A stretch of DNA of 59,690 nt, filler included, from Jimgerdemannia flammicorona (lineage: Eukaryota): the NCBI GenBank assembly GCA_003990765.1. It is 2 parts of 2 records of this genome, joined end to end, with 100 filler letters (N's around TTAATTAATTAA, not from the genome) between each part and the next. Parts side by side here need not be neighbours in the genome. Positions count along the whole stretch, not along the records: positions 29,901 to 59,690 come from RBNJ01000471.1; 1 more part is not named here. One strand, written 5' to 3'. How positions within the stretch are numbered: position 1 is the stretch's first letter; every line of letters starts with the position of its first letter. The position numbers and the translations under genes are program-made. The notes under the pieces were generated by a model that saw only the letters and a list, made by a program, of their open reading frames with translations, was not told the DNA's origin and did not search any database. Shown here piece by piece: positions 6,664-59,690 of the stretch.

Positions 6664-6727
6664 GAAGTAAAATATAATAGTAAGTGCATTCTCTACTACT
6701 CCATGTTTATCTCCTTCTGAGCTAGGT

Positions 6728-12570: not shown

Positions 12571-15500
12571 TCTTCCTCCTGAATAAGGATCTTCTTGAAT
12601 ATCCTTATTCATTAGTCCAGTCTTGAAAAATTTACTGATTCTATAATCTCTGGCAAGGGGTCAAAAAGTGGTATTTATAGGCTGGTGTCTTCTCTTTGTA
12701 TTTTGGTATGATGGTGAAGAGTTGCTCTCTTCATATAGAGCAAGAGCCTGATTCTGATCTTGATTAATCAGTTGATAGTTCAAACTCCTCTGGCTTTGAA
12801 AGTCTCATGAATGAGTAGTTGCTGATGCCATATCCCTTAGAGAATGGTCCAGACAGATAGTCTGCTAGTCATGGGATATGCTGTTATGATTTGTGGGCTA
12901 GAACCTCACAGGTAGTCATCATGTTTTACTTCTCTTATATAGGTTCATGGTACCTCTTGAGTCTATTTCTGTATACTGTGGTAGGCAGTATGGTCTCTGA
13001 GATTTTTCTAAGCCAGAAGGTAGTTCCCTTGATATCTTGCATATAGAAGGGTCCTTCTCATTTGGGCTCCAGTTTTCATAACCATGAGGCTTTTACCATA
13101 TTTTGATACAGTAGGACCTTTTTTCCAATTTGGATGGGTTCCAAGGTCTTGTAATTCTTTTCTGTATTCTTTCTTATCAGTGCTTATGACTTAATGATGT
13201 AATCTTCAGCCTTCTTTCTGATTTGGTGTAGTCTCTGGATTTCTGCATCAACTATCTCCAAGTTAGGTCTAGATTTGTAGCTAAGATTCCATCAGAATCT
13301 TCTTCTCCAAAGGGCAGTTCTTTTGGGGTAAAGTGTGTGCTCTGTGACCATATATCTCATAGGACAGAGAGGGTAGTTGGGAGGTAGTTATTCCAATTTT
13401 TATATGTCTCTGAGATCTTCACCAGGATATTCTTAAGGGTCTTGTTGGTCCTCTCTGTCTGTCTATTTCCTTAAGAGTAATATGCAGTGGTCTTGATGTG
13501 CTGAATCTTATATTTCTGATACATTATCTTATGGAATCTATTGATAAATTCTGTGCCATGGTCTGTGGTGATTTGCTTTAGTATCTTATAGTGGCAGATG
13601 ATTTCTCAGTGCAAGAAGTTAGCTATAGAGAGGGTATTGGCTTCTTATAATGCTCCTGCTTCTATCTATTTAGTAAAGAGGTCTATAATAACTATAATGT
13701 AGTAGTTTCCTGATAGTGTTACTGGTAGTGACCCAATGATATCTATTGTGATGTGGTGGAAGAGGATAGGTTCAATTCTTGATGATCCAGATACCTGGTC
13801 TTGCTGATCTTATTTCTGTTTTTGGTACTTATCATACTCTTTGATAAATTGGCACAGGTCTTCTATCATCTTGGGCCACCACATGGTTCTTCTTGCCTTG
13901 TCATATATATTGGTTCCTCCTAGGTGTCCTTGTTCATGTACTTCCTTCATTACTTGATACTTCTTGTATTTGGATATTATGAGCTTTCCTCCTTTTCTGA
14001 GTATAGTGTTGTCTAGTTCAAACAATTTCCAAGTCTGGTTGATGATGGTAATTGTCCAGAGTTCGAGGTGGTTGGGCATCTTCTACTGCCCAAGGTAGCT
14101 GATCAATCCATAGTATAACTTCTTATTTATATTGAATAGTCTTGATGGGAGTATTTTGGGGTATCCTTGAGAGTATATTAGCATTGGTATTGGTTTTTTC
14201 TGAGTAGTGCTTAATAGTATAGTTATACTCTTGCAGCCTATAGATCTATCTGGTATATATTTCTTTAGGGTTCAGAGTGTGGAATAGCCAGGCAAGAGCA
14301 GAATAGTCTGTTTGAATGGTAAAGTGTTTTCCAACTAGGTAGTAGTAGAACTTGTCTACTGTCCAAACTACTGCTAAGTATTTGAGCTTATATGACTTGT
14401 AGTTCTGTTCTGCTCCATAGGTATCTCAGCTTGTATAAGAGATAACATATTCATGTCCATCTTTCTTCTAAGCTAGGACTGCTCCAAGTTCTATAGTGCT
14501 TGCATCTGTCTGCAGGATGAACTCTAGGTTTCGATCTGATCTTCTGAGGATAGGTGCTTGAGTCAACCTGGTCTTGAGTTTATTGAAGGTTTTTTGGCAT
14601 TTCTTGGTCCATTTGAATTTGGTCTCCTTCTTCAGTAGCTCATAGATAGGTGCTATAATATTGGAGTATTCTTTGATGAATCTTCTGTAGTAGCTGGCCA
14701 GTCCAAGGAAGACATAGACTTCTGTGGTTGTTCTGAGTCTTGGGTAGGCTACAACAGCCTCAATCTTCATGGGGTCTGTATGGATTCTGGTCTGGTTGAT
14801 GAGGTGTCCTAGGTAGGTGATTTCTTGAGCTACAAACTTGCATTTCTTGGGCTTGATGTAGAGGCCATGCTCCTTGAGCTTCTTGAGAGCTAGCTGTATA
14901 TGATTCCTGTACAGTATTGCTGAAGATGATCACATTGTCAACATAGACAAAGAGCCATTTTCTGATCTCATTGCTGAAGACTCTATTCATCATTTACTAA
15001 AAACTTGCTGGGGCATTACACATTTTAAATAATATTCACAGGTAGATATAGGTGGCATTAGGTATAATGAAGGCTGATTTCTCACTGGTATCTTAAGTGA
15101 GATCAATCTGATGGAAGCCTGAGAACAGATCCAAGGTGGTATAGTATTTGGCTTCACTTCTAAGAGTGGTAAGAATTTCTTGAATATTTGGCAAGGGCTG
15201 CCTATCCTTCTTGGTAATTGTATTGAGCTTCCTGTAGTCAATACAGAGTCTTGGAGCAAACTCTCCAGGCTTACTTCCTTTCTTTAGGGCAAGGACAATG
15301 GGTGAAGCCCAGGGACTGATAGCTTGCTTGATGATTTCAGCTTCTTCCATTTCCTTGAGTTCTGCTTGCAGCCATTCTCTGTAGGCAGGTGGTATAGGTC
15401 TGGCTTTCTGATAGATGGGCTTGATATCACCAGTGTCAACTTTATAGTAGTACTTGGATTCTTGATTATAGATATCCCTGAAGTCTATAGCAAGTACTCT

Positions 15501-26997: not shown

Positions 26998-28344
26998 ATG
27001 TCCGACCCAACCCGTCTACAGCGCCTACTAGCCCGACTCAAGCCCTTCGAACACCTGCACAGTGCCCACCAAACTGAAATCTTGGCCTGGAAGAAAGATT
27101 TTTTGGAATATGACCAAGAACTTCGTGCTTGTCTTGACACCTTCGCCGTACCGCAGCTGGAGCCATACCTTGTCTGGATTCCACACGAAAAATTGGGTAA
27201 ATATTATGGTGGACTGAAACAACTTGCCAAAGGCGGGTTTGCCAAAGTTTACCAAGCGAATGTTTGGGCAAAGTCAGCATATTACAATGTGGCTGCTAAA
27301 GAATTGAAATTGTCGATGGTTGAAGAGGTGAGTTTCGGGTTGGTGTGATATATCCACTATTTTCCACACAATATTAATTACCGATAACCTTTATCCACTA
27401 ATAATTATAGTTAGTGCTGAATGTCTATTTGAGTCGCTGTGGAAATGACGCCAACAATGCCCCTACAATGGATATTGTCGCTGTGTCACGACACCCTGAA
27501 ACCAAAGAATATTTGATGATTATGCAATTTGCTGATATCGGCACTCTTGAGAAGCAGCCGTGCGACCAAGATGGTGATTGGTATACAGCTTTCACCTATG
27601 CTATAAAACTTTCCAGCCGCTTAGCCAGTCTCCACAATATGGGATTCTGCCATAAGGATCTCCACGCGGGAAACGTAGTATTCCACAAGTCTCATACCGC
27701 ACTCCTGATCGATGTCGGACTTAGTCAAGCTGTAGAAGATGTGAATTCCGAGAAAGGTGCCTACGGTCGGATTGCATACTTTCCTCCAGAGATCTTTAAG
27801 GGAGAACATTATACACAGAAATCAGACGTCTACTGCTTGGGAACCCTGTTGTGGCAGTTGATTGTCGGCGTTCCACCACAAGTCGACGCATCGGTAGCCA
27901 TCACCAGAAATCCTGATGGCCTTCGAGAGGAGTTAATCCCTAGTGCGCCAACAATGTTCAACGACATCATCCGAAGCTGCTGGCACATCAACCCCAACCA
28001 GCGACCGAGTGCTCTTGAAGTCCACCATCAATTGTTAGAATGTGCAGCTGGTTTAGTCAGCATTCCTTTTGTCTTGCGACCAAATATAGAAGATCAAATT
28101 TTAAGAGGGCTTGCAATTACATCTATACCTTTTTCACTCGAGATGCAATCGTTCATCGAGACAAGACGGGTCACCCATCAACAAGAGCTGGAATCTGCAA
28201 ACAGCGGCAACGTCTTCGAATTCATAGATGGACAGAGCACATGCAACACCGGGAGTAAATTTTACACACATTCACAACTCAAACAAATTACCAAAGAGCA
28301 CTCGCGATCGACCCTTATCACTCTTGTGCGACAACCAAATCAAG
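26998..28344 (+). CDS. Tyrosine-kinase-like (TKL) Ser/Thr protein kinase domain; exons 26998-27327 and 27411-28344; probably the N-terminal part of a kinase-LRR protein
   Basis: LAKGGFAKVY, VAAKEL, HKDLHAGN, LIDVGLS, YFPPE, SDVYCLG, CW...RPS motifs. Phase-0 GTGAGT...ACTAAT...TAG intron 27328-27410 joins the two ORFs in frame. Candidate donor G|GTTGGT at 28344/28345 (phase 1). Confidence 0.9.
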
Positions 28345-28645
28345 GTTGGTAGCATCACAGGTCATACAGTTATCCTTGTATATGATATTATATTTGTTAA
28401 CCAGCAGGCTTTTGTGTTCTTAACTTATGTCACAACGATTAGACTATGGTAGCATCAGAGGTAATGTTAGCAGGTCCCGAGATTGTTGACATTTGGTTTA
28501 TGCATATTAATTCTCGATTTGTGTTTAGAGAAGAGCATCCCGACGAATCACAACACATATATTATATCACATGAACTATTTTCTACTGTTCATATAATCA
28601 AAATCATGTTCTGTTTATGTTCGCTATATCTCTATTCATCTACAG

Positions 28646-29800
28646 AAAGCAGGACTGACAGCGAGGAGACCAGTATCCTAGTGAAGTTTCTGAAGCGAGA
28701 AGCGACCTTGCATGAGTTAAATCTCTCTGGTATGGTTGAACAGTGCGAACTATTGTTATGCAAAAATAAAAATACACACTCTGCTCATTTATATCATATT
28801 CAGGAAAGTGCAAGTACACGAGCGACAGAGCAACGCGCACTCTGATAGAATTTCTGAAGCAGAACACAAACGTGACCAAGCTCGATCTTAGCAGTGAGTC
28901 AGAAACATCCGAATTATTGTTTTTGTAGCTGTGGGATAGGAACAAGTTGTGATCCAGGTGTGTTCACATTCTTTCAATATATTCAGGAAACGGATTTGGC
29001 ATTCTGTTAGCCCGCGCCTTGGCAGAGTTTCTGAAGCAGAACACATCTTTGACCACCCTCAATTTTGAAGGTATATCAGAGTTACGTGAATCACTATTTT
29101 GAGCAATATGAGGGAACGGAGCTCACAATATCCGTGTGTTTTCTCATCTCCTTCTATTCATTTCTCAGTGAACAGCATCGGCCACGAGGGGGCACGCGAC
29201 CTTGACCTCGCTGCATCTCCGAGGTATGTCAGAAACCGGTGTGAAGAAAAATGGGGTGCGGCTGCGCAATGGAATCAAGCTCACGATGTGTGCGTGTTCG
29301 CTGATTCCCCTCCTGCTCATTTTCATTTCTCAGAGAACAGCATCGGCGACGAGGGGGCACGCGCCCTAGCCGAGTGTTTGAAGCAGAACACGACCTTGAC
29401 CTCGCTGGATCTCGGAGGTATGTCAGAAACTGGTGTGAAGCAAAATGGGGTGCGGCTGCGCAATGGAATCAAGCTCACGATGTGTGCGTGTTCGCTGATT
29501 CCCCTCCTGCTCATTTTCATTTCTCAGACAACGGCATCGGCCACGAGGGGGCACGCGCCCTAGCCGAGTGTTTGAAGCAGAACACGACCTTGACCTCGCT
29601 GGATCTCCGAGGTATGTCAGAAACTGGTGTGAAGCAAAATGGGGTGCGGCTGCGCAATGGAATCAAGCTCACGATGTGTGCGTGTTCGCTGATTCCCCTC
29701 CTGCTCATTTTCAGTTTCTCAGCGAACAGCATCGGCCACGAGGGGGCACGCGCCCTAGCCGAGTGTTTGAAGCAGAACACGACCTTGACCTCGCTGCATC
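28646..29800 (+). CDS. RNI-like (NLRC3-type, 28-aa) leucine-rich-repeat exons: 28646-28729, 28804-28893, 28987-29070, 29169-29223 (29-bp deletion), 29334-29417, 29528-29611, 29723-gap
   Basis: Each exon is flanked by CAG and GTATGT/GTATGG/GTGAGT/GTATAT. Intact exons are 84 nt (one 90 nt) and phase 1-1, translating to xN(S/G)IG(D/H)EGARALAECLKQNTTLTSL(D/H)L(G/R). Confidence 0.88.
29169..29800 (+). repeat. Tandem 194-bp exon+intron cassette (84-nt exon + 110-nt intron)
   Basis: Near-identical units start at 29169, 29334, 29528 and 29723; the array is truncated by the N gap. Confidence 0.92.
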
Positions 29801-29900
29801 NNNNNNNNNNNNNNNNNNNNNNNNNNNNNNNNNNNNNNNNNNNNTTAATTAATTAANNNNNNNNNNNNNNNNNNNNNNNNNNNNNNNNNNNNNNNNNNNN
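29801..29900. other. Assembly gap with artificial TTAATTAATTAA spacer (29845-29856)
   Basis: Ns flanking a palindromic 12-mer that gives stops in all six frames. Confidence 0.9.
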
Positions 29901-33625: not shown

Positions 33626-33826
33626 ATAATTTATATAATAAAATTTCTAATAGAATTTCTAGAGTAGTTATTATAATAGTGACTCTAGAATGATGACATC
33701 AGTACAGGAGACAGCCTTTCCTTGCAAGCCACCAGATCGGAGCACAAGAAGATCATATGGCATACAAGATGAGGAATGATGACCAACTGTGAGTCATTGT
33801 GACCACAGCACAAGTATCCTGAAGAA

Positions 33827-33833
33827 TATAAAA
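33827..33833 (+). promoter_or_regulatory. TATA box (TATAAAA) upstream of the LTR-internal ORF
   Basis: Present in all six family A LTRs, ~80 nt before an ATG in an A-rich context (AAACAAAATG). Confidence 0.55.
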
Positions 33834-33913
33834 GAAGGATCAAGAAACTGCAGTAGTAGCAACCAATAAGAACTACCAATCCCAAAATAGCTTAAAGACT
33901 TACTATAAACAAA

Positions 33914-34725
33914 ATGTCTGCTGCATGCCAAACCTCAAGGTCAAGAAATTACCAAGTATCTTGGTCGAGGAAAGGATGTTCCAAGACATCAGAAGAGCCA
34001 TGAGGACCCACTCAAGAAGGACTCCTAGTGTCAACCTGGGTACTGCAGACCCTTATCACTTCATTCTCTACTGCCATGAAATGGAAACAAGGATCACTAT
34101 TGCTACTGAATGCCTCCAAATGTGGCAGGAGTATGAAATAGGAAACCTTCTCTACTGGGAGTTCCCACAGGCCAGTACCCAAGAGCTACAAGATACCACT
34201 CCCATGGATATACACAAAACAAAGATAGCTAAGAAGATCCATCAGATCTTCAGGCATGTACCATGGTCAATCCCCAACTTGAAGTATGTTAGAGTCTCAG
34301 ACTTCAGAGACCTATCATCCTGCCATATCAATATACTAGAAGCCAAGGTGGCTATAGAAGCCTGGTCCACTATCACTCTCAACAGTGAAGAAGTAGAAGA
34401 CTTCTGGCACCCTATCCTTCAGGACATCCCAGACCAATTCCTGCAAGGATTGATCTCAGTATTCCGAGGCCCAAGCATCTGGGTTAGATCTCCCCAAGAC
34501 CCCATGTTTGTTCCTTATTTTGTGGAAGAGAACCTCATAGACTGGAGAGCTCCAGACCTTGTTTCCGATTTCCCCACCACAGCTAAACATGATGACATCA
34601 TTGGCGATGATGTCATCCTGTATGACATACGCGAAATGCATGACCTGTATGATGAATTCATGGATCTCATCTCCTTTAGTAATGATGATGATGAAGCCCC
34701 CATGGTCCTGAACTTTCTGCTCTAA
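33914..34725 (+). pseudogene. LTR-internal ORF of copy 2 5' LTR (1-bp deletion near 33956, otherwise open)
   Basis: Homologous over its whole length to the intact 278-aa ORF 56620-57456. Confidence 0.8.
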
Positions 34726-35136
34726 GTGCTTTGTTACACTGGATAATGCCAGCACCAGTATTCTCATGTAACACTAGATAATGCCAGCATCCTGAACCTG
34801 TACAACTATCAGTACCAACTCTGGAACTTAGTTGTTTTAGTTATTGGAATTTATATTTAGCTTTATATCTTAGCAACCATTGAATTATATTTTATATAAA
34901 TACCCCTCTTATTTCCTCTGAAATAAAGTTAGTCAACTCAGTGCAATATACACACTTTCTTGCAAATAATCTAAGAGATAACAAGACAGTTTAAAGATAA
35001 GAAGTTTGAGGACTATAAGACCTTGAGAAGGCACTCCAATAAGAACTTGCTTATAACGACTTGAGTTAGTCTAAGAGATATACCTTGAAGAGAATCTGGC
35101 ATATTTGAAGGACTCAGTGACCACTATGTGACAACT

Positions 35137-35153
35137 TGGTGCTCATTGGCTGG
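35137..35153 (+). promoter_or_regulatory. tRNA primer-binding site (TGGTGCTCATTGGCTGG), 3 nt after the LTR
   Basis: Starts TGG (complement of tRNA CCA); conserved at 53500 and ~18234-18250. tRNA species not assigned. Confidence 0.75.
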
Positions 35154-35253
35154 TGATTCAAGATGAATCCCTTACTTTTAAGCTGAAAAATGAATAACCC
35201 CCACAACAACTACTCTGACTACAAGAGTCACTCCTGCAAGAATTCAAGATAAG

Positions 35254-38200
35254 ATGGAAATGTATCCCCTTACATTCTATAGATATACTACTGAAGAGTC
35301 AATCCTGACCTTCATTGAAGACTTTGAACAATTTACTGCCATATGAGCCCTTGGTGTGGATGCTCAATTGGCCCTTCTACTAGTCAGCCTCAGTGGACCT
35401 GCCAGAGACAAGTTTAATGCAGCCACTATTGCTAGTGCTGATGCAGTCAAACTTACCAACATGAAGACCTTCCTCAGAACAACATATTATACTAAAGAGA
35501 TCAAGCAAGCTCTCAAGGATCAACTTAATACTATCTGCTAGGGACTTAGTGAAGATCCCAACTCATTCTATATCTGAATCTGCCACCAGATTGTCTTGGC
35601 TGGCTATGATGATGCCCTTAAGGAACAAATAGCAGATTCAACCTTCCTTAAAGGAGTTCACCTTGAAATTGCCTTAACAATCCAGTCTACCCCAGCTGCA
35701 CTGACCCTTGATCAGAAAGTGGTCTTTGCACAGAGATATTGGACTGCCAGACACCCTGCTGAACACTCAATAGAGAAAATAACTGGCATCAAGATGGAGC
35801 CATCAAAGCCAACTAGTATCTTACCTGCCACAGTTGTAAACAGACAACCAACCCCACCTATCCCCAAGACAGCCAAAGCTGATCCAGTGGAAGAACTCGC
35901 CAAGCAGTTTGCCGAGATGACTGCACACCTTGGTGATGTTATTAGAGAGGTCCGAAGCACTAACAGGAGACCAGTGCAGAGATTTGCAGCTACTACAGAA
36001 GAACACAATATCACATGCTTTAGATGCGGAGAAGAAGGCCACTATGCAAAGAGTTGCATGACTGAAATGAGATGCAAAGCCCAACCAAGCAATGCTAGCA
36101 GAACCAGAGAACAAACCAATGCAGTAGTTATTGAGGAGATTGGTGACACTGATGATGAAGAATACTACGAGGAGCTCGAATTCTACCCTGCTACTGAAGG
36201 TACCAGAACCCAGTCCAAGCCCTATGACAAGAAGAGCAACAGCAAGCCAGTTGGAAGACCAAAGAAGACTCCAGCTGTCACTATTCAAAGCAAGACCCAA
36301 CCCAAGGAGATTGATCAAGACATGGAGTTAGATGAAGCTACCTGCCAAATTATCGAAGGCACTACTCTAGTCTTAGAAGAAAGTGAGAGCAAGAAGGAAC
36401 AGAAGCTGTGCAAGACCAAGATCCACCAGTATGACATCTACAAGGACCTCAAGGAACAGAAGGTCAATGCCACTTTTGGACAGCTAGCTGAAGTCCCTGC
36501 CTTTAGATAGCAGTTGAGAGTAGGACTTGCAACTACTGCCAAGAATCAAGAGTACAAGATCATAGAAGCTCACAATGTACAAGAAGAATCTGAGAACTCA
36601 GGTGAAGAATCCGAAGACCAGCACAAGACATCAGCCTATACCCCCTGCCAGATTGAAGACTGTATCTTTGATGCCATCATTGATACTAGTGCTGGAGGAT
36701 ACCTCATGAGCAAGAAGGCAATTGAATGCCTAGGTTGGGACATTGAAGAGTCCACCAAGATGGTCTATATCACAGCAGATGGTACACAAGCTATCCCCCT
36801 TGGCAAAATCCGAGAAGTCCCCATCAAGATAGGAGGAGCTACCATCCCAGTAGACATGATTGTTACAAGCACCACCAACTATGACATCCTCATTGGCAAC
36901 CAATGGCTTCACAAGGCCAAGGCCATCATTGACCTCAATGCCCAGAAGATGCAGATCAACTACAGAGGAAGAAAGGTATGAGTTTCTATCAATGTCCACA
37001 AAGGAGTCCTGCCAGACATGGAGGAAAAAGATAAAGAAGACACAGAGGTCTTTATGCACTCAGTGAACAAGAATAAGAACAAGACATTCAAGCTCACAGA
37101 TGAGCAGTGGTATAACAAGATCATTGATGGGTATGCCCCTCAAGGAAGATGCCCCCATGGTACTAGAATGTACTGCTCTGAACACCTGAATGACTGCTGG
37201 TCCTGTATCAGTGAAGTCAGGAAAATCCACCAACAGAAACACAAGCAAGAAGCTGCTGAAGTAAAAAAGAAAGCTGAAGAAGATGACCACCCCCCAGAGC
37301 TTCAAGCTGACAGTGATGATGAGGAGGAACAAGAATCAGACATCACTCTCAAGGTTAAGAAGTTTCACCCTGAAGCCAAGATCCCAGAATACAAGACTGA
37401 AGGAGCCATAGGAATAGACCTTGCCAGCATCTAAGATGCTACCCTCAAACCACAGACCACCACCCTACTTGGCACTGGAATTGGAGTCAAGTTGCCAGAA
37501 AACCATGCTGGAATTATCAAGACCAGGAGCAGTCTGGCCAAAAGTGAAATCTCAGTTGAAGGAGGAGTAATTGACCCTAATTACACTGGTGAGATTTTTC
37601 TCATAGTCAGAAATCACAACCACACCACCCCCTTCAAAGTCAAGAAACATGACAGGATTGGCCAGATGCTAATTCATGAAATCAAAAAGTCCAAGATCAT
37701 AGAAGCCACTAAACTTATCAAGACCAAGAGAGGAGAATAAGGCTTTGGATCTACTGGAAGAGGAGCCTATGCCACCATCAAGATTACTAAACTTGAGCAT
37801 AGGAAAGACAAGGACCAGAACAAGTACACATATACCATTGGAGAAAACTTTCCCCTGGAGGAACAACTTCTCAAGATCCTGTACCAGAATGAAGGAGTAC
37901 TTGCTACAGACTTTAGGGATATCCACAATCAAGAACCCAAGTATTACCACGAAGTTGACACTGATGATACCAAGTCTATCTATCAGAAAGCCAGACCCAT
38001 ACCACCTGCCTACAGAGAGTGGCTGTGAGCCAAACTCAAGGAAATGGAAGAAGCCAGAATCATGAAGCAAGCTATCAGCCCCTGGGCCTCACCCATTGTC
38101 CTTGCCCTGAAGAAAGGAAGCAAGCCTGGAGAGTTTGTACCAAGACTCTGCATTGACTATAGAAAACTCAATGCCATCACCAAGAAGGATAGGCAGCTCT

Positions 38201-39279
38201 TGCCAAATATTCAAGAAATCCTTACCACCCTTGGAAGCAAAGCCAAATACTACACCACCTTGGATCTGTTCTCAGGCTTCCATCAGATCAGTCTCACTTA
38301 AGATGCTAGTGAGAAATCAACCTTCATCACACCTGATGCCACCTATATCTATCTGCGAATGCCATTTGGAATGTGCAATGCCCTAGCAAGTTTCCAGCAA
38401 ATAATGAACAGAGTCTTCAGCAATGAGATTGGAAAATGGCTCTTTGTCTATATTGATGATATGATCATCTTCAGCAATACTGCACGGGAACATATCAATC
38501 ACATACAGCTAGCCCTCAAGAGGCTCAAGGAGTATGACCTCTACATCAAGCCCAAGAAATACAAGTTTGTAGCTCAAGAAATCACCTACCTAGGACACCT
38601 TATCAACCAGACCAGAATCCATACAGACCCCATGAAGATCGAGGCTGTTGCAGCCTACCCAAGACCCAGAACAACCACAGAAGTCCATGCCTTCCTTGGA
38701 CTGGTCAGCTACTACAGAAGATTCATCAAAGGATACTCCAACATTGCAGCACCTATCTACGAACTACTGAAGAAGGAGACTAAATTCAAATAGACCAAGG
38801 AGTACCAAGAAATCTTCAATGAACTCAAGACTAGGTTGACCCAAGCATTCATCCTCAGAAGACCAGACTGGAACCTAGAATTCATCCTGCAGACAGACGC
38901 GAGTGCTATAGGACTTAGAGCAGTCCTAGCTCAGAAGAAAGATAAACATGAATATATCATCTCCTATGCAAGCTGAGATACCCGCAGAGCAGAACAGAAC
39001 TACGAGTCATACAAGCTTGAATACTTAGCAGTAGTTTGGACAGTAGACAAGTTCCACTACTACTTAGCCAGAAAACACTTCACTATTCAAATGGACCATT
39101 CCACTCTTGCCTGGCTATTCCACACTCTGAACCCCAAAGGAATATATGCCAGATGGATCTACAGGCTGCAAGAGTATGACTGTACTGTCAAGCACCACTC
39201 AGGAAAGACCAATACCAATGCCAATGCACTCTCAAGAACACCCTGAAACACTCCCATCAAGACTACTCAATATGAATAA
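35254..39279 (+). pseudogene. Single-frame gag-protease-dUTPase-RT-RNase H polyprotein with premature stops
   Basis: ORF pieces 35356, 35596, 36514, 37018, 37492, 38044 and 38359 are all in one frame. CFRCGEEGHYAKSC knuckle, AIIDT(S/G)A protease, dUTPase motifs, WASPIV/LCIDYRKLN/LDLFSGFHQ/MPFG/YIDD, LQTDAS, NANALSR. Confidence 0.92.
37345..37758 (+). pseudogene. dut: Trimeric dUTPase domain within pol, between protease and RT
   Basis: GAIGIDL, TRSSLA, GGVIDP(N/D)YTGEI, DRIGQM, RGE*GFGSTG (motifs 1-5). Also present in copies 1 and 3. Confidence 0.92.
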
Positions 39280-40798
39280 GGAGCTATACTATGGATTAAT
39301 CAGCTATCTTGGATAGTAGAAGATGCCCAACTACCTCAAACCCTGGATAATCACCATCATCAACTGGACTTAGAAATAGTTTGAATTAGACAACACTACA
39401 CTCAGAAAAGGAGGAAAGTTAGTAATATCTAAACATAAGAAGTATCAAGTAATGAAGGAAGTACATGAGCAAGAACACTTAGAAGGAACCAACACATATG
39501 ACAAGGTAAGAAGAACCATATGGTGGCCCAAGATGGAAGAAGACCTGTACCAATTTGTCAAAAAGTGTGACAAGTGCCAAAAACAGAAACAAGATCAGTA
39601 AGACCAGACACCCAGGTCATCAAGAATTGAGTCTATCCTCTTCCACCACATCATAATGGATATCATTAGACCACTACCAGTAACACTATCAGGAAACTGC
39701 TATATTATAGTTATTGTAGACCTCTTCACTAAATGGATAGAGGCAGGAGCATTACAAGAAGTCAATGCCCTCTCTATAGCTGACTTCCTATACTGAGAAA
39801 TCATCTGCTGCTATAAGACACCAAAGCAAATCACAACAGACCGTGGTACAGAATTTGTCAATAGATTCTATGAGATAACGTATCAGAAATACAAGATCCA
39901 GCACATCAAGACCACTGTGTACCACCCTCAAGGAAATGGACAGACAGAGAGAACCAACAAGACCCTCAAGAACATCCTAGCAAAGATCTCAGAGACATAT
40001 GAGAATTGGGATAACTATCTCCTGACTGCCCTCTCTGTTCTACGAGATATACAGTCACAGAGTACACATTTTACCCCAAGAGAGCTGCTCTTTGGAGAAG
40101 AAGATTCTGATGGAACCTCAGCCACAAATCTAGACCTAACTTAGAAATGGATTGATGCAGAAATCCAGAGACCACACCAAATCAGGAAGAAGGCTGAAGA
40201 TTACATCACCAAGTCACAAGCGCTGACAAGGAAGAATGCGGAAAAGAATCACAAGGTCCTAGAATCCATCTGAATCAGAGAAAAGGTTCTACTGTATTGA
40301 AATATGTTAGAAGCCTCATGGTCATGAAAACTGGAGCCCAAATGGGAAGGACCCTTCTATGTGCAAGATATCAAGGGAACTACCTTCTGGCTTAGAAAAA
40401 TCTCAGGGACCATACTGCCTACCACAGTACATAGGAACAGACTTAAGAAGTACCATGAACCTATACAAGAGAAGCAAAATGTGATGACCGCCTGTGAGAT
40501 TCTAGTCCGTGAATCATAACAGCATGTCCTGTGACCAGCAGGCTATCTGTCTGGACCATTCTCTAAGGGATACAACACTGCTAACTACTCATCTGTGAGA
40601 CTTTCACAGTCAGAGAAGTTCAAACCATCAACTGATTGATCAAGATCAGAATCAGGCCCTTGCTCTATATGAAGGGAGCAACCCTTCACTATTATGCCAA
40701 AATACAAAGGGAAGATGCCAGCCCATAAACACCAGTTTTTGACCCCTTGCCAGAGGTTATGGGATCAGCAAATTTTTCAGGACTGGACCAATGAATAA
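39272..40798 (+). pseudogene. Integrase in a separate (+1) reading frame, with premature stops; no chromodomain
   Basis: Starts MNKELYY. HHCC zinc finger, DII(G/R)PLP, ITTDRGTEF, YHPQGNGQTER, KWEGPF. Ends ...WTNE* just before the PPT. Confidence 0.88.
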
Positions 40799-40822
40799 GG
40801 ATACTCAGGAAGATTCTTATTC

Positions 40823-40832
40823 AGGAGGAAGA
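40823..40832 (+). promoter_or_regulatory. Polypurine tract AGGAGGAAGA
   Basis: Directly precedes TGTAAC of the 3' LTR; identical in copies 1 and 4 and in family B. Confidence 0.88.
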
Positions 40833-42294
40833 TGTAACAGTGACTCCAGAATAATGACATTAGTACAGGAGACAGCCTTTTCTTACAAGCCACCAGATTG
40901 GAGCACAAGAAGATCATACAGCATATGAGATGAGCAATGATGACCAACTGTGAGTCATTGTGACCACAGCACAAGCATCCTGAAGAATATAAAAGAATGA
41001 TCAAGGAACTGTAGTAGCAGCAACCAACAAGAACCACCAATCCCAAAATAGCTCAAAGACTTACCATAAACAAAATGCCTGCTGTATGCTAAACCTCAAG
41101 GTCAAGAAATCACCAAGGTATCTCAGTTGAGGAAAGGATGTTCCAAGACATCAGAAGAGCCATGAGGACCTACTCAAGAAGGACTCCTAGTGTCAACCTG
41201 GGTACTGCGGATCCTTATCACTTCATTCTCTACTGCCATGAAATGGAAACAAGGATCACTATTGCTACTGAATGCCTCCAAATGTGGCAGAAGTACGAAA
41301 TAGGAAACCTCCTCTGCCAGGAGTTCTCACAGACCAGTACCCAAGAGCTACAAGATGCCACTCCCATGGATATATATGAAATAAGGACAGCTAAGAAGAT
41401 CTATCAGATCTTTAGGCATGCATCATGGTCGATTCCCAACTTGGAGTATGTTAGAGTCTCAGACTTCAGAGACCTATCATCCCACCATATCAATGCACTA
41501 GAAGCCAGGGTGGCTACAGAAGCCCAGTCCACTATCACCCTCAACAGTGAAGAAGTAGAAGACTTCTGGCACTCTATCTTTCAGGACAATCCAGACCAAT
41601 TCCTGCAAGGATTGATCTCAGTATTCCAAGGTCCAAGCATCTGGGTTAGATCTCTCCAAGACCCCACATTTGTTCCTTATTTTGTAGAAGAGAACCTCAT
41701 AGACTGGAGAGCTCTAGACCTTGTTCCCAATTTCCCCACCACAGCTAAATGTGATGATGTCATCAGTGATGACATCATCCCACATGACATATGCAAAATG
41801 CATGACCTATATGATGAATTTGCAGATCTCATCTCCTTCAGTGATGAGATGATGAAGCCCTCATGGTCCTGAACTTTCTGCTCTAAGTTTTTTATTACAC
41901 TGGATAATGTCAGCACCAGTATTCTCATATAATACTGGATAATGCCAGCATTCTGAACCTGTACAACCATCAGTACTAACTCTGGAACTTAGTAGTTTTA
42001 GTTATTGGAATTTATATTTAGCTTTATATCTTAGCAACCATTGAATTATATTTTGTATAAATATTCCTCTTATTTCCTCTGAAATAAAGTCAGTCAATTC
42101 AGTACAATATACACACTTTCTTGCAAGCAATCTAAGAGATAACAAGACAGTTTAAAGATAAGAAGTTTGAGGACTATAAGACCTTGGGAAGGCACTCCAA
42201 TAAGAACTTGCTTATAATGACTTGAGTTAGTCTAAGAGATATACCTTGAAGAGAATCTGGTGTATTTGAAGAACTCAGTGATCACTATGTAATA
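40833..42294 (+). repeat. 3' LTR of family A copy 2, with LTR-ORF remnant (41075-41886)
   Basis: Direct repeat of 33672-35133, same length. Confidence 0.92.
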
Positions 42295-42927
42295 TTATAT
42301 ATATCTTCAATAAGATAAGTATAAATATTCTTAAATATTATATAGTATAATATAGCAGATATCTAATCTTAGAAGTATGGTGGATTTCTATATATTGAAA
42401 CTTGATCTTATTCTAACTCTTACAGAGTTCTCAAGGTGTAAAGATATAAGTTCAAAGTATATCTGGCTATAGGCTTACTAGTTCTCTTACTTTTTCTTTA
42501 CTTTGAACTATTTTGATCTGAGGTTTATTCACTCTAGATACTGGAGATATTTATATAAGTTCACTAGCTATAAGGTGGCTGAGGTATGACTATATTTCCT
42601 ATAAGTTACTTTTTATAAGTATGGATTCTTAATATCTGTGAAATTTTAAAAATTATCAAAATTCAATATCTATTAAATCTTGATATTTATAAAAATAACT
42701 ACTATTTATATAGCTATACTATTTTGGAGATTGGTTTAAGTACTATAATCAAATATCTATTCCTCTAATTTATATTTCTAATTCAGATCAATTATGTATT
42801 ATAACTTTCTCCTAAATAAATATTTTATCTCTAAAGTATCTTATTCACTTGAACTCCCAAACTTCTATAAGTTATATCTCTTTATACTATATATATAATT
42901 TGTATTATTATATTCTCTTAATAGTAT

Positions 42928-45900
42928 TTTTTTTTATTTTTTTTATTTTTTTATAGTTACTTAGACTTTACCATTTATTACTAGTCTATTAAATATAAAT
43001 ACAATACTCTCTCCCACTACCCAATCCCTCTAGGGGGGCCCCTCTCCATACTTAAATACTTGAACACTACCTTACCACCTACTACTCCAACCCTCTCTCT
43101 ACTCTGCCTACAAATTTTCTTTATCAAATGATATCTCTGACTACTCTGCAGACCCCATCCCAGCTACTAGCCTGTCAAGACATCCTCCATCAACCCTTTC
43201 TACTACAACAGCCTCTCTACTAACTTCAAGTACCTTCTTTCCTCAAAAACAAATAACCAGTGTCTCTCTAGCCCCACCTATACAGCCAATATCCAACCCA
43301 TAGTGAGTCACTTCTTTCCAACCCCCCCCACCAATCTATCTCTCAGATTCTCCCATATACCCTACTCCCTATCCCCCCTCCTTATAATACTCAGTCAATT
43401 TCCAACTGCTAACCAAAAGTTCCTAAGTACCTTGCATTCTCCCAGCCAATGTTTGGGTATCTGTACAAACTCCCCTTTTTATCCTACATTATAACACTCC
43501 TTACAGTCAAAGTTACCCCCCTCTACCAGGTAGCTTAAGCAAAAGTTGAGTATGATATTCCTCTATAGTATGCACTATTAAACCACCCAGTACTTAGGTG
43601 GTAGCCATCATTATATCTCTGTACTCCAGGCCTAGACCCCATTCCAGTTTCACTCCTCCCCAATACCTACTATCTATCAACCACTAGGCCAAACATTCTG
43701 TCCCAACCCTCTCTAGTACTTGACCCCATCACCAATATTAAAGTCAATTAGGAGAGTACCCCCCAATAGCACTCTATCTCACCTCCACATTGTCAGGCCC
43801 CAAGGCATCTCTCCTTTAGCCCCCTGCTAGTAAATCTCAATACAGTGCACCCCATCAACCACTCTCCACCAGAATCTCTTATACTATATGTGCTCACTGT
43901 TCTGAAGCCCAACCAAGAACAGTAGATCTCCTGTAGAGTCTCTTAGCAAGAACCTCATCTCCCAGACCTTCTTCATTAGAGGAATCCAGCTACCACTTCT
44001 CAGTTCTACTACTCTCATCAATCACTATACTCATAGATAATACAGCCTCTTTGGGAAGTCAACCAGCTCAAGACCTCCTCTATCCACTAGCAATGACAAG
44101 ATCTCCCAACTAATCTGACTCCTCCTTCCTGCCCAGATCCAACCTTTGGCCTGCTTCAACAACCTCTTTACTACCCAGGCAGAAAAGTCTAGATAATATG
44201 CCAAATACTATAGCTTTGGCAGCCAGTAGATATTCAAAATCAAAACATGCCCTGTCAAAGATAAGTAACAGCCTCCCCAACTCCACAGAGCCTCCCCCCA
44301 GATAGCTACTCACTGCTCTCACCAAGGTCATGGTAAAACTGATCCATATACTAAAAGATAGATGCTCAAGTACCTCACAGTCTCTCTAGCAGAAACAATC
44401 ATTCCAATGACATCTCCTCCCATCAGACCATTGCCCAACACCATTGTTTCACACTTGTACCAGTTGAGTTTAGCTCCAGAGTATACCTCATATCACTCTA
44501 CTGTTTTCTGGAGTTTCTCAACATCAGCAACTGATCTCAGGCCAACTATAATATTATCCACAAAGACCCCAACTTTCTATACAATTCTAAATACTGAGAG
44601 CCCCACTACCTTCTACTAAATCCTGTCCATCAAGAGCTCCAAGGATAAAGCATACAGAATAAGAGACAGTAGGTCTCTCTAGAGAATACCCCTACCCAGA
44701 GAAAATGCCACCCCTCAATACTTATTATATATGAGCACTGCTCTACTCTCTTCCAGTAGGTTAATTATTGCCACTTAGAATGGCTGAGAGACACCAATCC
44801 TATTCAGTACCTTTGCCAACCAGACCTACTAAATACAATCATACACCTTCTTCTGATCTAAGAAGACCAATCTCCCATCTAGTCTACAGACTTGTATCTT
44901 CAATAATATAGTACACCTAAGCCATACCATTCCTAATGAGCTGGCCCTCTATAAAACCTCTCTGCTCCTTATCCAAGACTTGCTGGGCCATCTTCTGCAG
45001 TCTTGCTACCACTACCTTAGTAACCAACTTTCTGTCTATATCCAGAAGCATGATAGGCTGCCAGTTCTTCCAGTTCTCTCTCCCACCCTTATTCTTATAA
45101 AGCAGTACCACCAGCCCCAAATCTTGCTCACCCACCCACCTCCCTGACTGTAGTACCAAGTTATACATCACTATCATCTCTCTCAGTATACCAGAGACTC
45201 CTAGTATCTTCTTTCAAAAGTCCTAGGACAGACCATCCTCTCCTAGTGCCATGTCTAATATAGTTACAGCAAGAATCTAACAAATCTCCTTCTCCTATTC
45301 TGGCACTACCAAGCTGCCCAACCCATCTACCTGCAGTGGGTACTAATTCTCCAAAGTATGTTCAATAGTAGCAGTATCAGCCCCACTCTCCTCCTCACTC
45401 TACAAACCACTCCATCTCTCTTTTAGTAAGTCTAGGATGTTCTGTAGACTATACACCATTAGCTCATCCAAATTCAGTACCCCCTCCTACCTCTGCCTCA
45501 CTTGTCTTGCTCAAAGGATCCTTGAAAGATACTTAGAGGGCCTCTCTCTCTCCTCTAGCCCCTGTCAGCATAATCATGCAGCCAAACTCTGTACCTGCAA
45601 TCTCTCCTCCTCTCTCAAAACCTGTTATAACTCAGTAATCTCCAGCTTCACCTACATCAATCTTCAGTCCTCCACCCCCTCCAGGGCCAAGAGATCTGTC
45701 CAATTTTTCAAAAGTCTATCTAGTCTAGCAGAAGCTTAAGACACCCTCTTTCTCCTCTGCCTACCAGCTACCTTGCTAGCCTCTCTTTAATAAACCCTCA
45801 CAGCCTCCTTCAACCTTACCCATCAGACACCAACTGGAACACTCTCTTGTATCCAACCCTCTACTCTCTATCTAATATCCTCAGCCTACTTGTCCCACAA

Positions 45901-48781
45901 TACCTTTTCAGCCAATAAAGAGAAATTGAGGTACTAATGTCTAGACCTATCCCTACTTCCCCCAAAATGACCCTGTCCCAACAGTCTCCAATGGTTAGAC
46001 CATAGATATCACTCAGCCTCCAGTGACTTCCAAACATCCAAACCAGCAGTTCACTGTCAGCACCCAGTCAATCCTCATTCTCAGGTCATTTGTCCAGTAT
46101 GTATATATTCTCCTATCTCTCCAGAATCCCCTTCCAGCATCCACTAGAGAGCCCAGCCTTTCCACATCCTCCCACACCTCCAGGCCCCTACTCCTACCCT
46201 CAGCCCTCTGCCCTCTATCAGTTCTATCTATCAGTACCTCCTGGATCATATTAAAGTCCTCTCCAAGAATATCTACTCTAGCCTCTGTAAGGGTTCCACT
46301 CTCTTGGAGTCTCTTCACCTATTCCACTTGCTCACCTTATACAGCAGGGTAGTAACAGAAACTCATCATAACTGGTTTCCACCTCAGTCAACTCTACTCT
46401 CCTCAAACCAGCCAGTCTCTCCAGCTCCTCATATCATATATCTCCCCTTTGTCTCACCAAACCAAAATCCTAACCTTGCTCTTCCAGACTGTCTCACCTC
46501 CCCATTTCTTCATCCAATCTAGTCTATCCAAGTTATTCATATCTGACATCCTGCAAAAGAAAGAGATCAGCCTCCAATCTCTTCAGCTAAGTAAAAAGTT
46601 CCATTGTCATACTGATTCCCAAAGCCCATTTATGTTCAAAGAAAAAATATTAGTTGTACTGTTTATAGAAAGTAATGTTAAAAGATAAGTACACTCTCTA
46701 TAGTTCCACATTCATCTCCTTCTGTGTCAAGTCCAAATCACATTCAATAGCCACCTCTTCCTCTTTAGCCCTCTTAGTCTCCAATTCCACCAGTAGTGCC
46801 ACTAGCTCCCCATCTTTCTTCTCCTCAAAGTCCTCATAATAATCCAAGCAAGCCTCCTACCAGAACTGCAATTCATGTCTCTCCACTCACCAGAGAGTGG
46901 CCTGCTCCTCAGCAATAACTACCAGCTCTACCTCCCTTACCTTGTTGATCTCATATCCTTTCTCTTCTAAGAAAACTACAAGCACCTCTACCTTCAGGGC
47001 CTCTACCACTCCATCTTCATACAAGATCTATGCCCATTGATCATTACTAAGTACCCTCAGGTCCACCTCACCCAACTTCTCAGCCACCAAGTTATTCATC
47101 ATCTGATACATCCACTGTAGGTTTCCCATCTTCTTGCTATCCAGGGTTACCAGTCTCCCCTCTCCCAGCATCAAAGTATCAGCCTCCACACTTGCAGTCT
47201 CATCTCACTTCTCTTCAGAGATATCCACCAGTTCATCCTTACCCACTGCCACCACTTGACCCTCTTTCACCACCTCAGAGACTCCAAAGTATACTTTCTG
47301 AGTCTCTTGTATAGGCAAATTCTCTGCCATCCTGCCCCTCAAGGCTGGATCCCTTCTGATAAGAGAAGGAGTATCCTTTCAGACTTCAAACATACAATTC
47401 ACATATGGGTTACTCAGTGTCTTCCTGGCCTCTTCTGGGCTCTCCTCTATACTCTCTCCTCTCTCACTGGCCCAGATACTTACTTTGGCACCCCTGTATT
47501 CTCAATGCCCCCAGAATCCCTCTTTGTCTTCTCTTCCAGATTTATCAGCAACTTCCTCTGCCTCTTGCACTCTTGAGATCTCTTCTACAGCCCCTTATCA
47601 ATGCAGACATATATCCCATCCACTATCTCCAAGTGTGTCAACTCTATATATATCTTCCAAGCCTTCACCCTCTGCTCTACTGCACTATTCAGCTCCTCTA
47701 GTATCTCCAACAAATCCTCCTTCTCCTCCTCACTCTCCTTCACTCTTATCACCTTACATATAAAGGCCCTCCACACCATCACTGATAGCTAATTACAAAT
47801 CTTCTTGGTAGCCTCTCTCCTAGTCAGTGGAATCTGAATATCAATATTCTCTGTCCTGAATTAGGTCCCTTCTCAGACCCAAACCCCAACATTGACCACC
47901 TCTTTATACTCAATCATAACCTTCTCAACTCTTCTCCTCATCTCTATAGTAGTCACCATGGGTATGCCTTTTATCAGAAGTTATATCACTCTAGAGTCTT
48001 ATCTCAAATATTACATCATTGGGATACACACCTCCCCAACAGTCAGCCCTGTCTTCAGTATAGCCTCCAATGGCCCAGCCTCCTCAAAACCCACCTCCAC
48101 CTCTTCTAAATTTCTCAGGAACTTTACAGATACTGTATCATCCATCTGCTTAGCAATCAGCCCCAAGACTATCTTTGCCATTACTGCTAAGCTCTGGAAG
48201 TACAAAGTGACTGCAAACTCCAAGATTGACTTCTTGAGTAACAGGGCCACTACTAGACCCATTATACTATCTATCAGATCCCCTATCTAGCTGGGCCCTA
48301 TCTTTCCAGTCCCACCATCAGCAGTCACATCTGGTTTTTTTTTCAGATTGTCAGTTACTACTCCATCAGCAGTTATATCTCCAGCCACTACATCACTGGC
48401 CCTTCCACCAGATATCCCCCTCCCAGCCCCTCAGCAGCAGCCTTCCTCTTGCCCCTCTGCAGCCATCCATCCAGTCTAGCTGCTAGACCCCCCTGCCTGA
48501 CCTTCTCAGTAAAGCTCATCTGATTCCCCCCTGGCAGCACCTTGCCTCCTCCTCCACTACTGCTGATCTCCCTTCTATCTACCAAAATGCTCAGTATCTC
48601 CAACTCTACTCTCTGACCCCTCCCCACATACTACCAGCCAAATGCATGGGACCACCCTGCCTAGTACACTCTATAGAACTCTGATTCAAGAACATATTCT
48701 TAAAATACTTCTCTAAAGAATAGTGTAAAAGTAGTTGATATATATTTATATAATATGAGATATATTAGAGAGAGTTACTTG
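42928..48781 (-). mobile_element. Full-length decayed LINE, copy 2
   Basis: T-tail at 42927-42952, 13-bp TSD ctcttaatagtat (42915-42927) / ctctcaatagtat (48782-48794). ILGEDFN, RIDWVL, LLYKNKG...WQPIMLLDIDRK motifs. Confidence 0.9.
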
Positions 48782-50979: not shown

Positions 50980-51695
50980 TGTCTGTTGTTATTTATACTG
51001 AAGTCTTAAATCAACAAATAATTTTCTTATAAAAGAAATTAGTAATTGATTATATATTGACTTCTTTGAGTAGTCCTACTTCTATCTATTTTATAAAAAG
51101 GTTTATAATAATAATAATGTATTGGTTATCAGTTAAAGTTAATGATAGAGGGCCAATTACATCTATTATAATGTGAGCAAATAGTATTAGTTCTATATAT
51201 ACTGATTCTGGAGTCTGATTTTACTGATCTTATTTTTGTTTTTGGTATTTATTATAGGTCTTGATAAATTATCTAATATCTTTCTCTATTTCTGGCTACT
51301 ATATTGTTCTTTTAGCTTTCTTGTAAATATTTATTCCTTTTAGATAGCTGAGTTTATATACTGACTTTATTGTTATTCTTTCTTATACTCAAGTATGACT
51401 AGTATTTTTTTTTTCTTTAAAGTTTCTCTATTAGTTTTGAATTGTTTCCATATTCTACTAATAATTATTTATGTTCATTCTTTCAGATATTGAGACATCT
51501 TTTACTATTCTAGATAGGTGATAATTCTATAGTAAAGCTCTTTATTCATAGTTGGTTTACTGGTTGGAAGTTCTTTAGTATATCTATGAAAGAGTATCAG
51601 ATTCTTCTTGAGTAGTATACAATAGTTACATTATAGGCCTATAACTTCATAATCTATTTGACATAGATTTCTTTAGGTTATTCAGTAGTTAGTAG

Positions 51696-54600: not shown

Positions 54601-56172
54601 ACAGCAAGCTAGTTGGAAGACCAAAGAAGACCCCAGCTATCACTATCCAAAATAAGACCCAACTCAAGGAGATTGATCAAGACATGGAGTTAGAGAAGGC
54701 TGTCTACCAAATTATTGAAGATACTACTCCAGTCTCAGAAGAAAGTGAAAGTAAGAAGGAACAGAAGCTGTGCAAGACTAAGATTCACCAGTATGATATC
54801 TACAAGGACCTCAAGGAACAAAAGGTCAATGCTACTTTTGGACAACTAGCTGAAGTCTCTGCCTTCAGACAGCAGTTGAGAGTAAGACTTGTAACTACTA
54901 TTAAGAATCAAGAGTATAAGATTGTAGAAGCTCACAATATATAAGAAGAATCTGAAGACCAGTACAAAACATCAGCCTACACCCCATGTCAGATTAAAGA
55001 TTGTGTCTTTGATACCATTATTGATACTAATGCTGGAGGATGCCTCTTGAGTAAGAAGGCAATTGACTACCTAGGCTGGAACATTGAAGAGTCCACCAAG
55101 ATGGTCTATGTCACAGTAGATAGTACACAAGCTACCCTCCTTGGCAAAATCTGAGAAGTCTCCATCAAGATAGGAGGAGCTACCATCCCAGTAGATGTGA
55201 TTGTTACAAGCACCACCAACTATAACATCCTCATTGGCAACTAATGGCTTCACAAGACCAAGACTATCATTGACCTTAATGTCCAAAAGATGCAGATCAA
55301 CTATAGAAGAAGAAAGGTATGAGTCTCTATCAATGTCTACAAAGGAGTTCTATCAGACATGGAGAAAGGAGATAAAGAGGACACAGAAGTCTTCATGCAC
55401 TCAGTGAACAAGAATAAGAACAAGACATCCAAGCTCACAGATAAGCAGTGGTATAACAAGATCATTGATAGCTATGCCCCTCAAGAAAGATGCCCCCATA
55501 GTACTAGGATGTACTGCTCTGAACACCTGAATGACTGCTGGTTCTGTATCAGTGAAGTCAGAAAAATCTGCCAACAGAAGTATGAGTAAGAAGCTGCTGA
55601 AGTAAAAAGGAAAGCTGAAGAAGAAGACCAGCCTCTGGAGCTGCAAGCTGACAGTAATGATGAGGAGGAACAAGAACCAGACATCACCCTCAAGGTCAAG
55701 AAGTTTTACTCTAAAGCCAAGATCCCAGAATATAAGACTGAAGGAGCCATAGGAATGGACTTTGCCAGCATTCAAGATACTACCCTCAAACCACAGACCA
55801 CCACCCTACTTAGCACTGGAATTGGAGTCAAGTTACCAGGGAACTATGCTGGAATTATCAAGACCAGGAGTAGTCTTGCCAAAAGCAAAATCTCAGTTAA
55901 AGGAGGAGTAATTGACCCTGATTACACTGGCAAGATCTTCCTTATAGTCAGGAATTACAACTCCACCACCCCATTCGAAGTTAAGAAGTATAACAAGATT
56001 GACCAGATGCTGATCTATGAAATCAAGAAGTCCAAGATCACTGAAGCCATCAAACTCATCAAGACCAAGAGAGGAGAATAAGGCTTTGGATCTACTAGAA
56101 GAGGAGCCTATGCCACCACTAAGATTACCAAACTTGAGCACAAGAAAGATAAGAATCAGAATAAGTACATAT
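51696..56172 (+). mobile_element. Family A copy 3 (5' LTR with duplicated 3' end, PBS, gag-protease-dUTPase), interrupted by copy 4
   Basis: Starts TGTAACAGTG at 51696. LTR-ORF remnant 51949-52779, LTR ends at 53273 and again at 53496, PBS at 53500. Homology stops at ...gtacatat 56172. Confidence 0.9.
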
Positions 56173-59100: not shown

Positions 59101-59690
59101 GGTATTACTAGCTTTCCTCCTTTTCTGAGTGTAGTGTTGTCTAATTCAAACTGTTTCCAAGTCCGGTTGATGATGGTGATTGTCCAGGGTTCGAGGTGGT
59201 TGGGCATCTTCCGCTGCCCAAGGTAGCTGATTAATCCATAGTATAGCTCCTTATTCATGTTGAATAGTCTTGATGGGGATGTTTCGGGGTGTCCTTGAGA
59301 GTGCATCGGCATTGGTATTGGTCTTTCCTGAGCGGTGCTTGACAGTACAGTCATATTCTTGCAGTCTGTAGATCCATCTGGCATATATTCCTTTGGGGTT
59401 CAGAGTGTGGAATAGCCAGGCAAGAGCAGAATGGTCTGTCTGAATAGTGAAGTATTTTCCAGCTAGGTAGTAGTGGAACTTGTCTACTGCCCAAACTACT
59501 GCTAAGCATTTAAGCTTGCATGACTCGTAGTTCTGTTCTGCTCCACGGGTACCTCAGCTTGCGTAGGAGATGACATATTCATGTCCATCTTTCTTCTGAG
59601 CTAGGACTGCTCCAAGTCCTATAGCACTTGCATCCGTCTGCAGGATGAATTCTAGGTTCCAGTCTGGTCTTCTGAGGATGGGCACTTGGG
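56173..59690 (-). mobile_element. Family A copy 4 (least mutated): 3' LTR 56173-57697, PPT 57698-57707, integrase and RNase H; runs off the window
   Basis: Intact TG...CA termini (TGTAATGGTG...CACTACGTGACA) and many CpGs retained. Integrase ORFs 58311-58874 and 58938-59384. Confidence 0.93.
56620..57456 (-). CDS. Intact 278-aa orphan protein encoded entirely inside the LTR; acidic C-terminus; function unknown
   Basis: Open ATG-to-TAA frame within LTR 56173-57697, with TATAAAA at 57536-57542. Homologues in the five other family A LTRs share start, C-terminal region and mostly frame-preserving length. Confidence 0.85.
   Translation of the reverse strand: MPAACQTSRSRNHQGISVEERMFQDIRRAMETRSRRTPSIHLGTADPYHFILYRYEMETRITIATECLQMWQEYEIGNLLYRKFPQASTQELQDATPMDIREMRTAKKIHQIFRHAPWSIPNLEYVRVSDFRDLSSRRINALEARVATEAQSTITLNSEEVEDFWHPILQDNSDQFLQGLISVFQGPSIRVRSPQDPTFVPYFVEENLIDWRAPDLVPNFPATPERDDVIDDIILRNIEACENDKVRETHDLHDEFADLISFSDDDDDEAPMVLNFLL

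Follow-up and report, generated by a model that had tools for sequence, protein, structure and literature searches.

In LTR retrotransposons and retroviruses, fusion to Gag-Pol normally brings integrase into the particle and sets its amount. Foamy viruses make Pol apart from Gag and package the enzyme without fusion to Gag, and the whole of their Pol, integrase included, comes from spliced RNA. In canonical Ty3/gypsy elements (Metaviridae), integrase occupies the C-terminal part of Pol, a position that is the usual state of these elements and not the basis of their classification. The GyDB survey records integrase after the protease, after RNase H, truncated and antisense (REM1), lost, or upstream of gag (PVCV), and its consulted sections contain no separate sense integrase frame coupled to the RNase H stop (PMC2774666). 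A dUTPase between protease and reverse transcriptase (RT), as in the locus studied here, is described for PosPlaTy3-5 of Postia; this element and those of Phanerochaete and Tuber are described, unlike ours, as one gag-pol ORF or gag plus pol, with no separate integrase in the consulted sections (PMC2864245). The consulted parts of PMC10508981, PMC6431247, PMC13468544, and PMC5941688 have no bearing on a split integrase. In the open literature, searched without subscription journals, Repbase, or supplements, we found no description of a separate, stop-coupled integrase in LTR retrotransposons.

Reinitiation after a long ORF is described for start and stop codons that lie within ~20 nt of each other and out of frame, and its TURBS type ignores the Kozak context (PMC10275272, in excerpt). 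TURBS are defined by a motif in an upstream loop that is complementary to the apex of 18S helix 26 (ES7) (PMC11921876, in excerpt); the calicivirus and influenza B examples resemble the elements described below in having start and stop ≤20 nt apart and out of frame (PMC10275272, in excerpt). Fungal stop/restart is represented by HvV190S (Victorivirus), with an AUGA overlap, and the hypovirus CHV1, with UAAUG (PMC6631646 and PMC10275272, both in excerpt). Both viruses have fungal hosts, as the split elements probably do, and the same overlaps are found among the latter; RNA structure lies directly upstream in the viruses and is predicted there in split lineages of the AUGA/UAAUG type. The viruses are dsRNA and ssRNA agents that couple capsid to RdRp, and HvV190S has a pseudoknot of the H type, whereas the stem-loops predicted for split lineages are simple and are absent from the class studied here. 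SART1 is a retrotransposon with UAAUG start-stop coupling, but it is a non-LTR element in which ORF1 is coupled to ORF2, a downstream structure is needed, and no integrase is present (PMC10275272, in excerpt). The stop-coupled integrase frame described below is a clade-wide Ty3/gypsy organization, for which the coupling precedent among retrotransposons is the non-LTR element SART1.

The window, by which we mean the whole stretch of 59,690 nucleotides of Jimgerdemannia flammicorona DNA (filler included; GCA_003990765.1) that was analyzed, contains a complete but dead LTR element, copy 2 (33672-42294), with 1.46-kb LTRs (Table 1). LTRs with TG...CA ends, a polypurine tract, a CCHC gag, the order PR-RT-RH-IN, and H2C2 plus rve domains are shared with canonical Ty3/gypsy elements, from which it differs in carrying integrase outside Pol. 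The earlier note had described gag through RNase H as one frame, and copy 2 bears this out despite its internal stops. Pfam searches of this ORF1 frame, with X at stops, returned zf-CCHC, aspartyl protease, a dUTPase that the earlier note does not mention, RVT_1, and RNase H, and those of the +1 frame from 39272 returned H2C2 and rve; no chromodomain, which at the integrase C-terminus marks the chromovirus branch, was matched in the integrase of the window or of the relative L072, nor in the listed integrase relatives. The dUTPase (PF00692) is also found in most of the closest gag-pol relatives without integrase, and PF00293 is listed in its place in P0318. A TGG-containing stretch, a candidate tRNA primer-binding site, follows the 5' LTR. 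The LTR of the family to which copy 2 belongs (family A) contains an open frame of 297-305 codons with an acidic end and without a Pfam match, which is largely open in several young copies; a long ORF within an LTR is unusual.

Table 1. Features of the window discussed in the text
Feature	Position	Strand	Remarks
5' LTR, copy 2	33672..35133	+	self-BLAST; TG...CA ends decayed
ORF1 frame gag-CCHC-protease-dUTPase-RT-RNase H, copy 2	35254..39279	+	from ATG 35254; stop TAA 39277-39279; 12 internal stops, dead copy
dUTPase, between protease and RT	37372..37758	+	Pfam PF00692, E=1.4e-26
G-poor stretch before integrase ATG	39227..39271	+	3 G in 45 nt; predicted unstructured in class relatives
ATG-AA-TAA start/stop overlap, copy 2	39272..39279	+	ATGAATAA; ATG 5 nt before stop; integrase in +1
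Separate integrase frame, copy 2	39272..40519	+	10 internal stops
Integrase domains, copy 2	H2C2 39431-39592, rve 39647-39928	+	preceded by N-terminal helical extension
Second ATGAATAA, just before polypurine tract	40791..40798	+	present in 28/29 matched family-A copies
Polypurine tract, copy 2	40824..40832	+	
3' LTR, copy 2	40833..42294	+	self-BLAST, ends
Junction, copy 4	59251..59258	-	ATGAATAA, same as copy 2
CCC-CGA, RNase H frame, copy 4	59284..59289	-	11 codons before stop; only candidate +1 slip site
Junction, copy 1	14123..14130	-	ATAAATAA; stop kept, ATA in place of ATG
Junction, heavily decayed family-B copy	51542..51549	-	ATGAATAA, same as copy 2
Open frame within family-A LTR	33832-34725	+	
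Open frame within family-A LTR	56620-57537	-	
Host gene, Tyr/Ser-Thr kinase-domain frame	27411-28352	+	
Host gene, leucine-rich-repeat frame	29305-29856	+	
Another repeat, two 5.5-kb copies	2908-8408 and 42925-48396		71% identical; strong negative GC skew

At each junction, the RNase H frame ends at the TAA as ...YE* or ...HE*, and integrase, beginning MNKELYY, starts in the overlapping +1 frame. The placement of ATGAATAA in copy 2, copy 4, and family B, its decayed form ATAAATAA in copy 1, and the frame relation had all been put forward in the earlier note; inspection and translation of the sequence confirmed them. By itself the octamer is only mildly enriched in the window (10 matches versus 5.3 expected, with 10 reached in 4 of 100 shuffles), and its fixed place is the evidence. 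Other occurrences were rejected as junctions: the one at 35190 is missing from copy 1, and those at 7087, 46533, and 47092 lie in unrelated sequence. Contigs from one sequencing run cover the element across 56100-59690 with differences that are mostly transitions; they show no joint or indel at the junction and are uninformative on expression. The LTRs of copy 2 are 91.6% identical, with transitions making up 116 of 122 differences, differences between copies are nearly all transitions as well, and CpG stands at 0.22 of expectation in the window. This pattern is consistent with methylation-driven decay, which would make LTR divergence a poor clock.

Elsewhere in the 231-Mb assembly, all 43 family-A copies read keep the TAA, with ATG in 39, ATA in 4, and none fused, the first 29 of them having come from a junction-spanning query. 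A junction-blind control with an integrase-only query gave 20 loci, and the 18 with a readable junction were all split, some of them being copies in which no stop interrupts the integrase frame. For family B, the 19 of 30 loci that fit the strict pattern were read; all 19 have TAA, with ATG in 12 and ATA in 7 at the integrase start. The earlier note was right about the junction and frame relation of family B but overstated its divergence, as young A and B copies share 75% DNA identity in integrase; because of this identity, family B is to be regarded as a sibling of family A and not as an independent origin. A third family of this genome carries an ATGA overlap in 17/19 loci. The fourth, a gypsy family represented by L200 (G000:C3096) and L201, is fused in a single frame, indicating that the decay of this genome does not itself create the split; it lies near the split group in the RT-RNase H tree and offers a useful outgroup.

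Searches with the integrase retrieved 214 proteins, the full-length ones stand-alone and ~410-450 aa long; the one named relative, a Rhizophagus protein, has 34% identity and suggests a fungal host. In an alignment of 60 full-length relatives chosen from 120 listed (40-49% identity), the catalytic motifs and the first Met are invariant, although Met invariance alone is weak, as gene callers favor Met starts. The 88 longer proteins included no close fused relative: the best fused one has 34% identity over most of the query, and one has 40% over 44% of it. A metagenome scan, of which 79 loci were kept and to which five viral loci were added, supplied 23 fused elements and 25 split ones with a readable integrase start. 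Read as stop-to-stop frames, the first position of integrase is ATG in 25/25 split junctions, and L063 and L073 provide two further split junctions; of 53 fused relatives submitted for comparison, 31 could be aligned, and a single one of these has Met at the integrase-start column. In several metagenome relatives, gag-pol runs unbroken for 1,500-1,800 codons and the integrase frame comes after it. On the L073 contig, two RNase H/integrase junctions ~7.8 kb apart enclose integrase, ORF3, and a 1,791-codon gag-pol, as tandem copies.

The junction count leaves out seven loci that were labeled split but had a late HMM start: in the tree, L112, L113, L135, and L136 group with fused elements, L115 belongs to the same family as the fused L109, and L108 and L143 are truncated or permuted. 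Viral contigs yielded distant elements only, the five closest being fused in four cases and truncated or permuted in one.

In the integrase tree, a quick search on subsampled rows with a midpoint root, split and stand-alone integrases form one branch of 59 rows (SH-aLRT 100) with no fused member. The RT-RNase H tree (FastTree) has a split branch of 35 rows with support 99, and the only row labeled fused within it, P0303, extends just 17 residues beyond the RNase H motif. Judged by both phylogenies, the split elements, which bear a dUTPase, are one clade, in which we found no fused member. Its RT and integrase are related to gypsy, as fused gypsy-type proteins are neighbors in both trees, which were built without named reference clades. 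A neighboring group, represented by proteins only, has Pol without integrase or integrase as a stand-alone protein. The Rhizophagus protein P0120 belongs to a second group of stand-alone integrases. Four gag-pol proteins of the sister group (P0320, P0321, P0322, and P0328) carry acidic tails of 260-330 aa after RNase H, in which Pfam found no integrase match.

We then compared the position of the ATG with that of the stop, after merging near-copies at 70% N-terminal identity into 21 lineages, which share ancestry and are not 21 independent events. L074 and L076, with spacers of 92 and 86 nt, were left out: an earlier in-frame TGA ends their frame, and the next stop overlaps the ATG. All 21 lineages have their ATG between -8 and +5 nt of the stop, at offsets of -1 (7 lineages), +2 (5), -5 (3), -8 (3), -7 (2), and +5 (1), which places all of them within the ~20-nt, out-of-frame spacing of coupled reinitiation. 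The ATG follows the RNase H end motif at distances of 32-119 nt (r = 0.985 over the 21 lineages). Permutation gave a mean of 4.8/21 and a maximum of 14 in 100,000. AUGA (7/21) and UAAUG, including UGAUG (5/21), are the commonest of the overlaps and are absent from the family of the window, whose AUG-NN-stop geometry is like one of RHDV. Integrase is in the -1 frame in 15 lineages and in +1 in 6, and both frames occur within one branch of support 100. Among the +1 lineages, many have an integrase frame that stays open well before the ATG, for 47 codons in family A, and contains AUGs in frame. In L090 the integrase frame closes six codons before the ATG, and in L103 one codon before it.

The other end of integrase behaves differently. 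In relatives of the element, an ORF3 of 110-250 aa follows integrase (L062:5795-6253, L072:6467-7156, and others), with its ATG embedded in the terminal Y-H codons of integrase; it is degenerate in family A, and neither Pfam nor the protein atlas gave a match, or a usable one in the latter case. Across the 12 loci with a pattern match, the ORF3 ATG holds a fixed place in integrase, and the stop of integrase varies in position, 14-131 nt farther downstream; the ORF listing gives a wider integrase/ORF3 range, from -1 (L102) to about -400 (L069). This loose junction shows that overlap is tolerated and argues that the tight coupling of RNase H and integrase is not mere compaction. The second ATGAATAA of copy 2 aligns by eye with the ORF3 stop of L062; this copy of the octamer and its counterparts (40791/57732/12605) are likely to be the old stop of the degenerate ORF3 and not a second coupled junction.

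No universal cis element was found across the lineages. Unlike the calicivirus and influenza B TURBS, the split clade has neither UGGGA, which occurs in only 1/21 lineages, nor an excess of complementarity to the helix-26 (ES7) apex, for which the Watson-Crick run was 4.7 versus 4.6 in controls when the host 18S was used for all lineages; a TURBS identity is not supported. The planned folding scan of 60 nt upstream was not significant (mean z -0.64, P=0.115). A post hoc contrast, amounting to 2 changes on the tree of which 1 is forced, separates two classes. In the 13 lineages with an offset of -1 or more, the 45-nt pre-junction window averages -11.5 kcal/mol versus -4.7 in 174 controls, and 5/13 have z below -1.5 versus 6% of controls; stem-loops are predicted upstream in these AUGA/UAAUG-type lineages, often just before the stop. 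The 8 lineages with offsets of -5 to -8, the class of the window, are G-poor (0.10 versus 0.22) and unstructured. Within the UAAUG subclade, 6/14 pairs of the stem-loop change on both sides over six sequences, some changes altering encoded residues, with five of the six covarying pairs resting on L069 and the stem-loop drawn from the same sequences. For the family-A junction, RNAalifold on five relatives returned a weak downstream helix with an unfavorable covariation term and no convincing conserved structure.

The earlier note had proposed three routes to integrase, namely termination-reinitiation, a +1 frameshift, and a separate transcript, and the comparative data favor the first of these, disfavor the second, and leave the third unlikely. 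Because the AUG stays near the stop but out of frame and shows no preference for a Kozak context, integrase is probably translated as a separate frame from the full-length RNA via coupled termination-reinitiation. A spliced or subgenomic RNA, read by scanning and with its 5' end or acceptor just upstream of the AUG, would account for the invariant Met and for both frames, may be needed for the uncoupled ORF3 of the same elements, and has a parallel in the spliced pol RNA known from foamy viruses. Such an RNA does not predict that the stop tracks the AUG in every lineage; position -3 relative to the integrase ATG is variable (A7 C7 G4 T3), and a branch site plus YAG within 100 nt of the ATG occurs in 2/21 lineages versus 15/155 control windows, so that acceptors are not enriched and we regard this source as unlikely. 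Ribosomes might also enter internally at the AUG, landing on the upstream stem-loop whether or not the upstream frame is translated; the covarying stem-loop of one subclade and the weak Kozak context speak for this. Entry of this kind needs no stop beside the AUG, and 8/21 lineages lack upstream structure, which makes it very improbable.

Programmed frameshifting would yield a normal RNase H-integrase fusion at low level, by a +1 shift at CCC-CGA in families A and B and their kin and by a -1 shift in others. A CCC-CGA site with perfect +1 re-pairing occurs in four +1 loci, L061, L062, L066, and L068, whose +1 frame is open upstream, and XXXYYYZ-like heptamers exist in 5/15 of the -1 lineages. 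This reading appears improbable, as it leaves the invariant Met without a reason, demands opposite shift directions among close kin, and lacks a candidate site in 10/15 of the -1 lineages, in L086 and L087, and in the young family-B element L186; moreover, L103 offers a single open codon before its ATG, the -1 lineages conserve Pro-Arg at this place through other codons, and the hairpin covers or precedes the heptamers instead of following them. That the split is instead a mutation that inactivates the element and was multiplied as it was copied, fused elements providing integrase in trans, might be suggested by the death of all window copies and by the fused gypsy family in the same genome, but unbroken split elements occur in many lineages, the overlaps take six different geometries, the longer proteins hold no close fused relative, and the free integrases keep their catalytic motifs, leaving this explanation with next to no probability. 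The earlier note had pointed to young copies with an in-frame RNase H-integrase fusion as the sign of such a mutation; none was found, the junctions reached through integrase alone are all split, and unbroken relatives are split too. The alignment of junctions that it had called for, over genomic copies and relatives, likewise upheld the split. Together, these comparisons of sequence confirmed that the split is a real and conserved organization, to all appearances functional, and not decay.

Under coupled termination-reinitiation, ribosomes would translate Gag-PR-dUTPase-RT-RNase H and then terminate; a minority would stay bound to the RNA and begin again at the neighboring AUG, which in family A would involve a 2-nt backward shift of the P-site. 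In the AUGA/UAAUG lineages the predicted upstream stem-loop would be the cis signal, and in lineages like that of the window the G-poor, open RNA is predicted to permit a backward slide; from the place of termination, the ribosome would move forward in the one class and backward in the other. Integrase would then be a free protein, produced in a fraction of the amount of Gag-Pol and needing no protease to release it from RNase H, and it would have to enter the particle, or find the cDNA, through non-covalent contacts. The elements would thus resemble foamy viruses in packaging an enzyme unfused to Gag and differ from them in that the whole Pol comes from spliced RNA there. More tentatively, and with some doubt, an old and widespread gypsy clade may combine TURBS-independent reinitiation, in two interchangeable cis solutions (a stem-loop for forward restart and G-poor RNA for the backward move), with an integrase route that is not known from LTR elements.

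Annotation pipelines will misread such elements, either as broken copies or as "transposases" that stand alone. With more than 20 natural variants of one stop/restart junction in six geometries, the clade lends itself to the study of TURBS-free, fungal-type reinitiation after a long ORF. The success of a clade without a Gag-Pol-integrase fusion implies that integrase is packaged by a different route and controlled at a different point.
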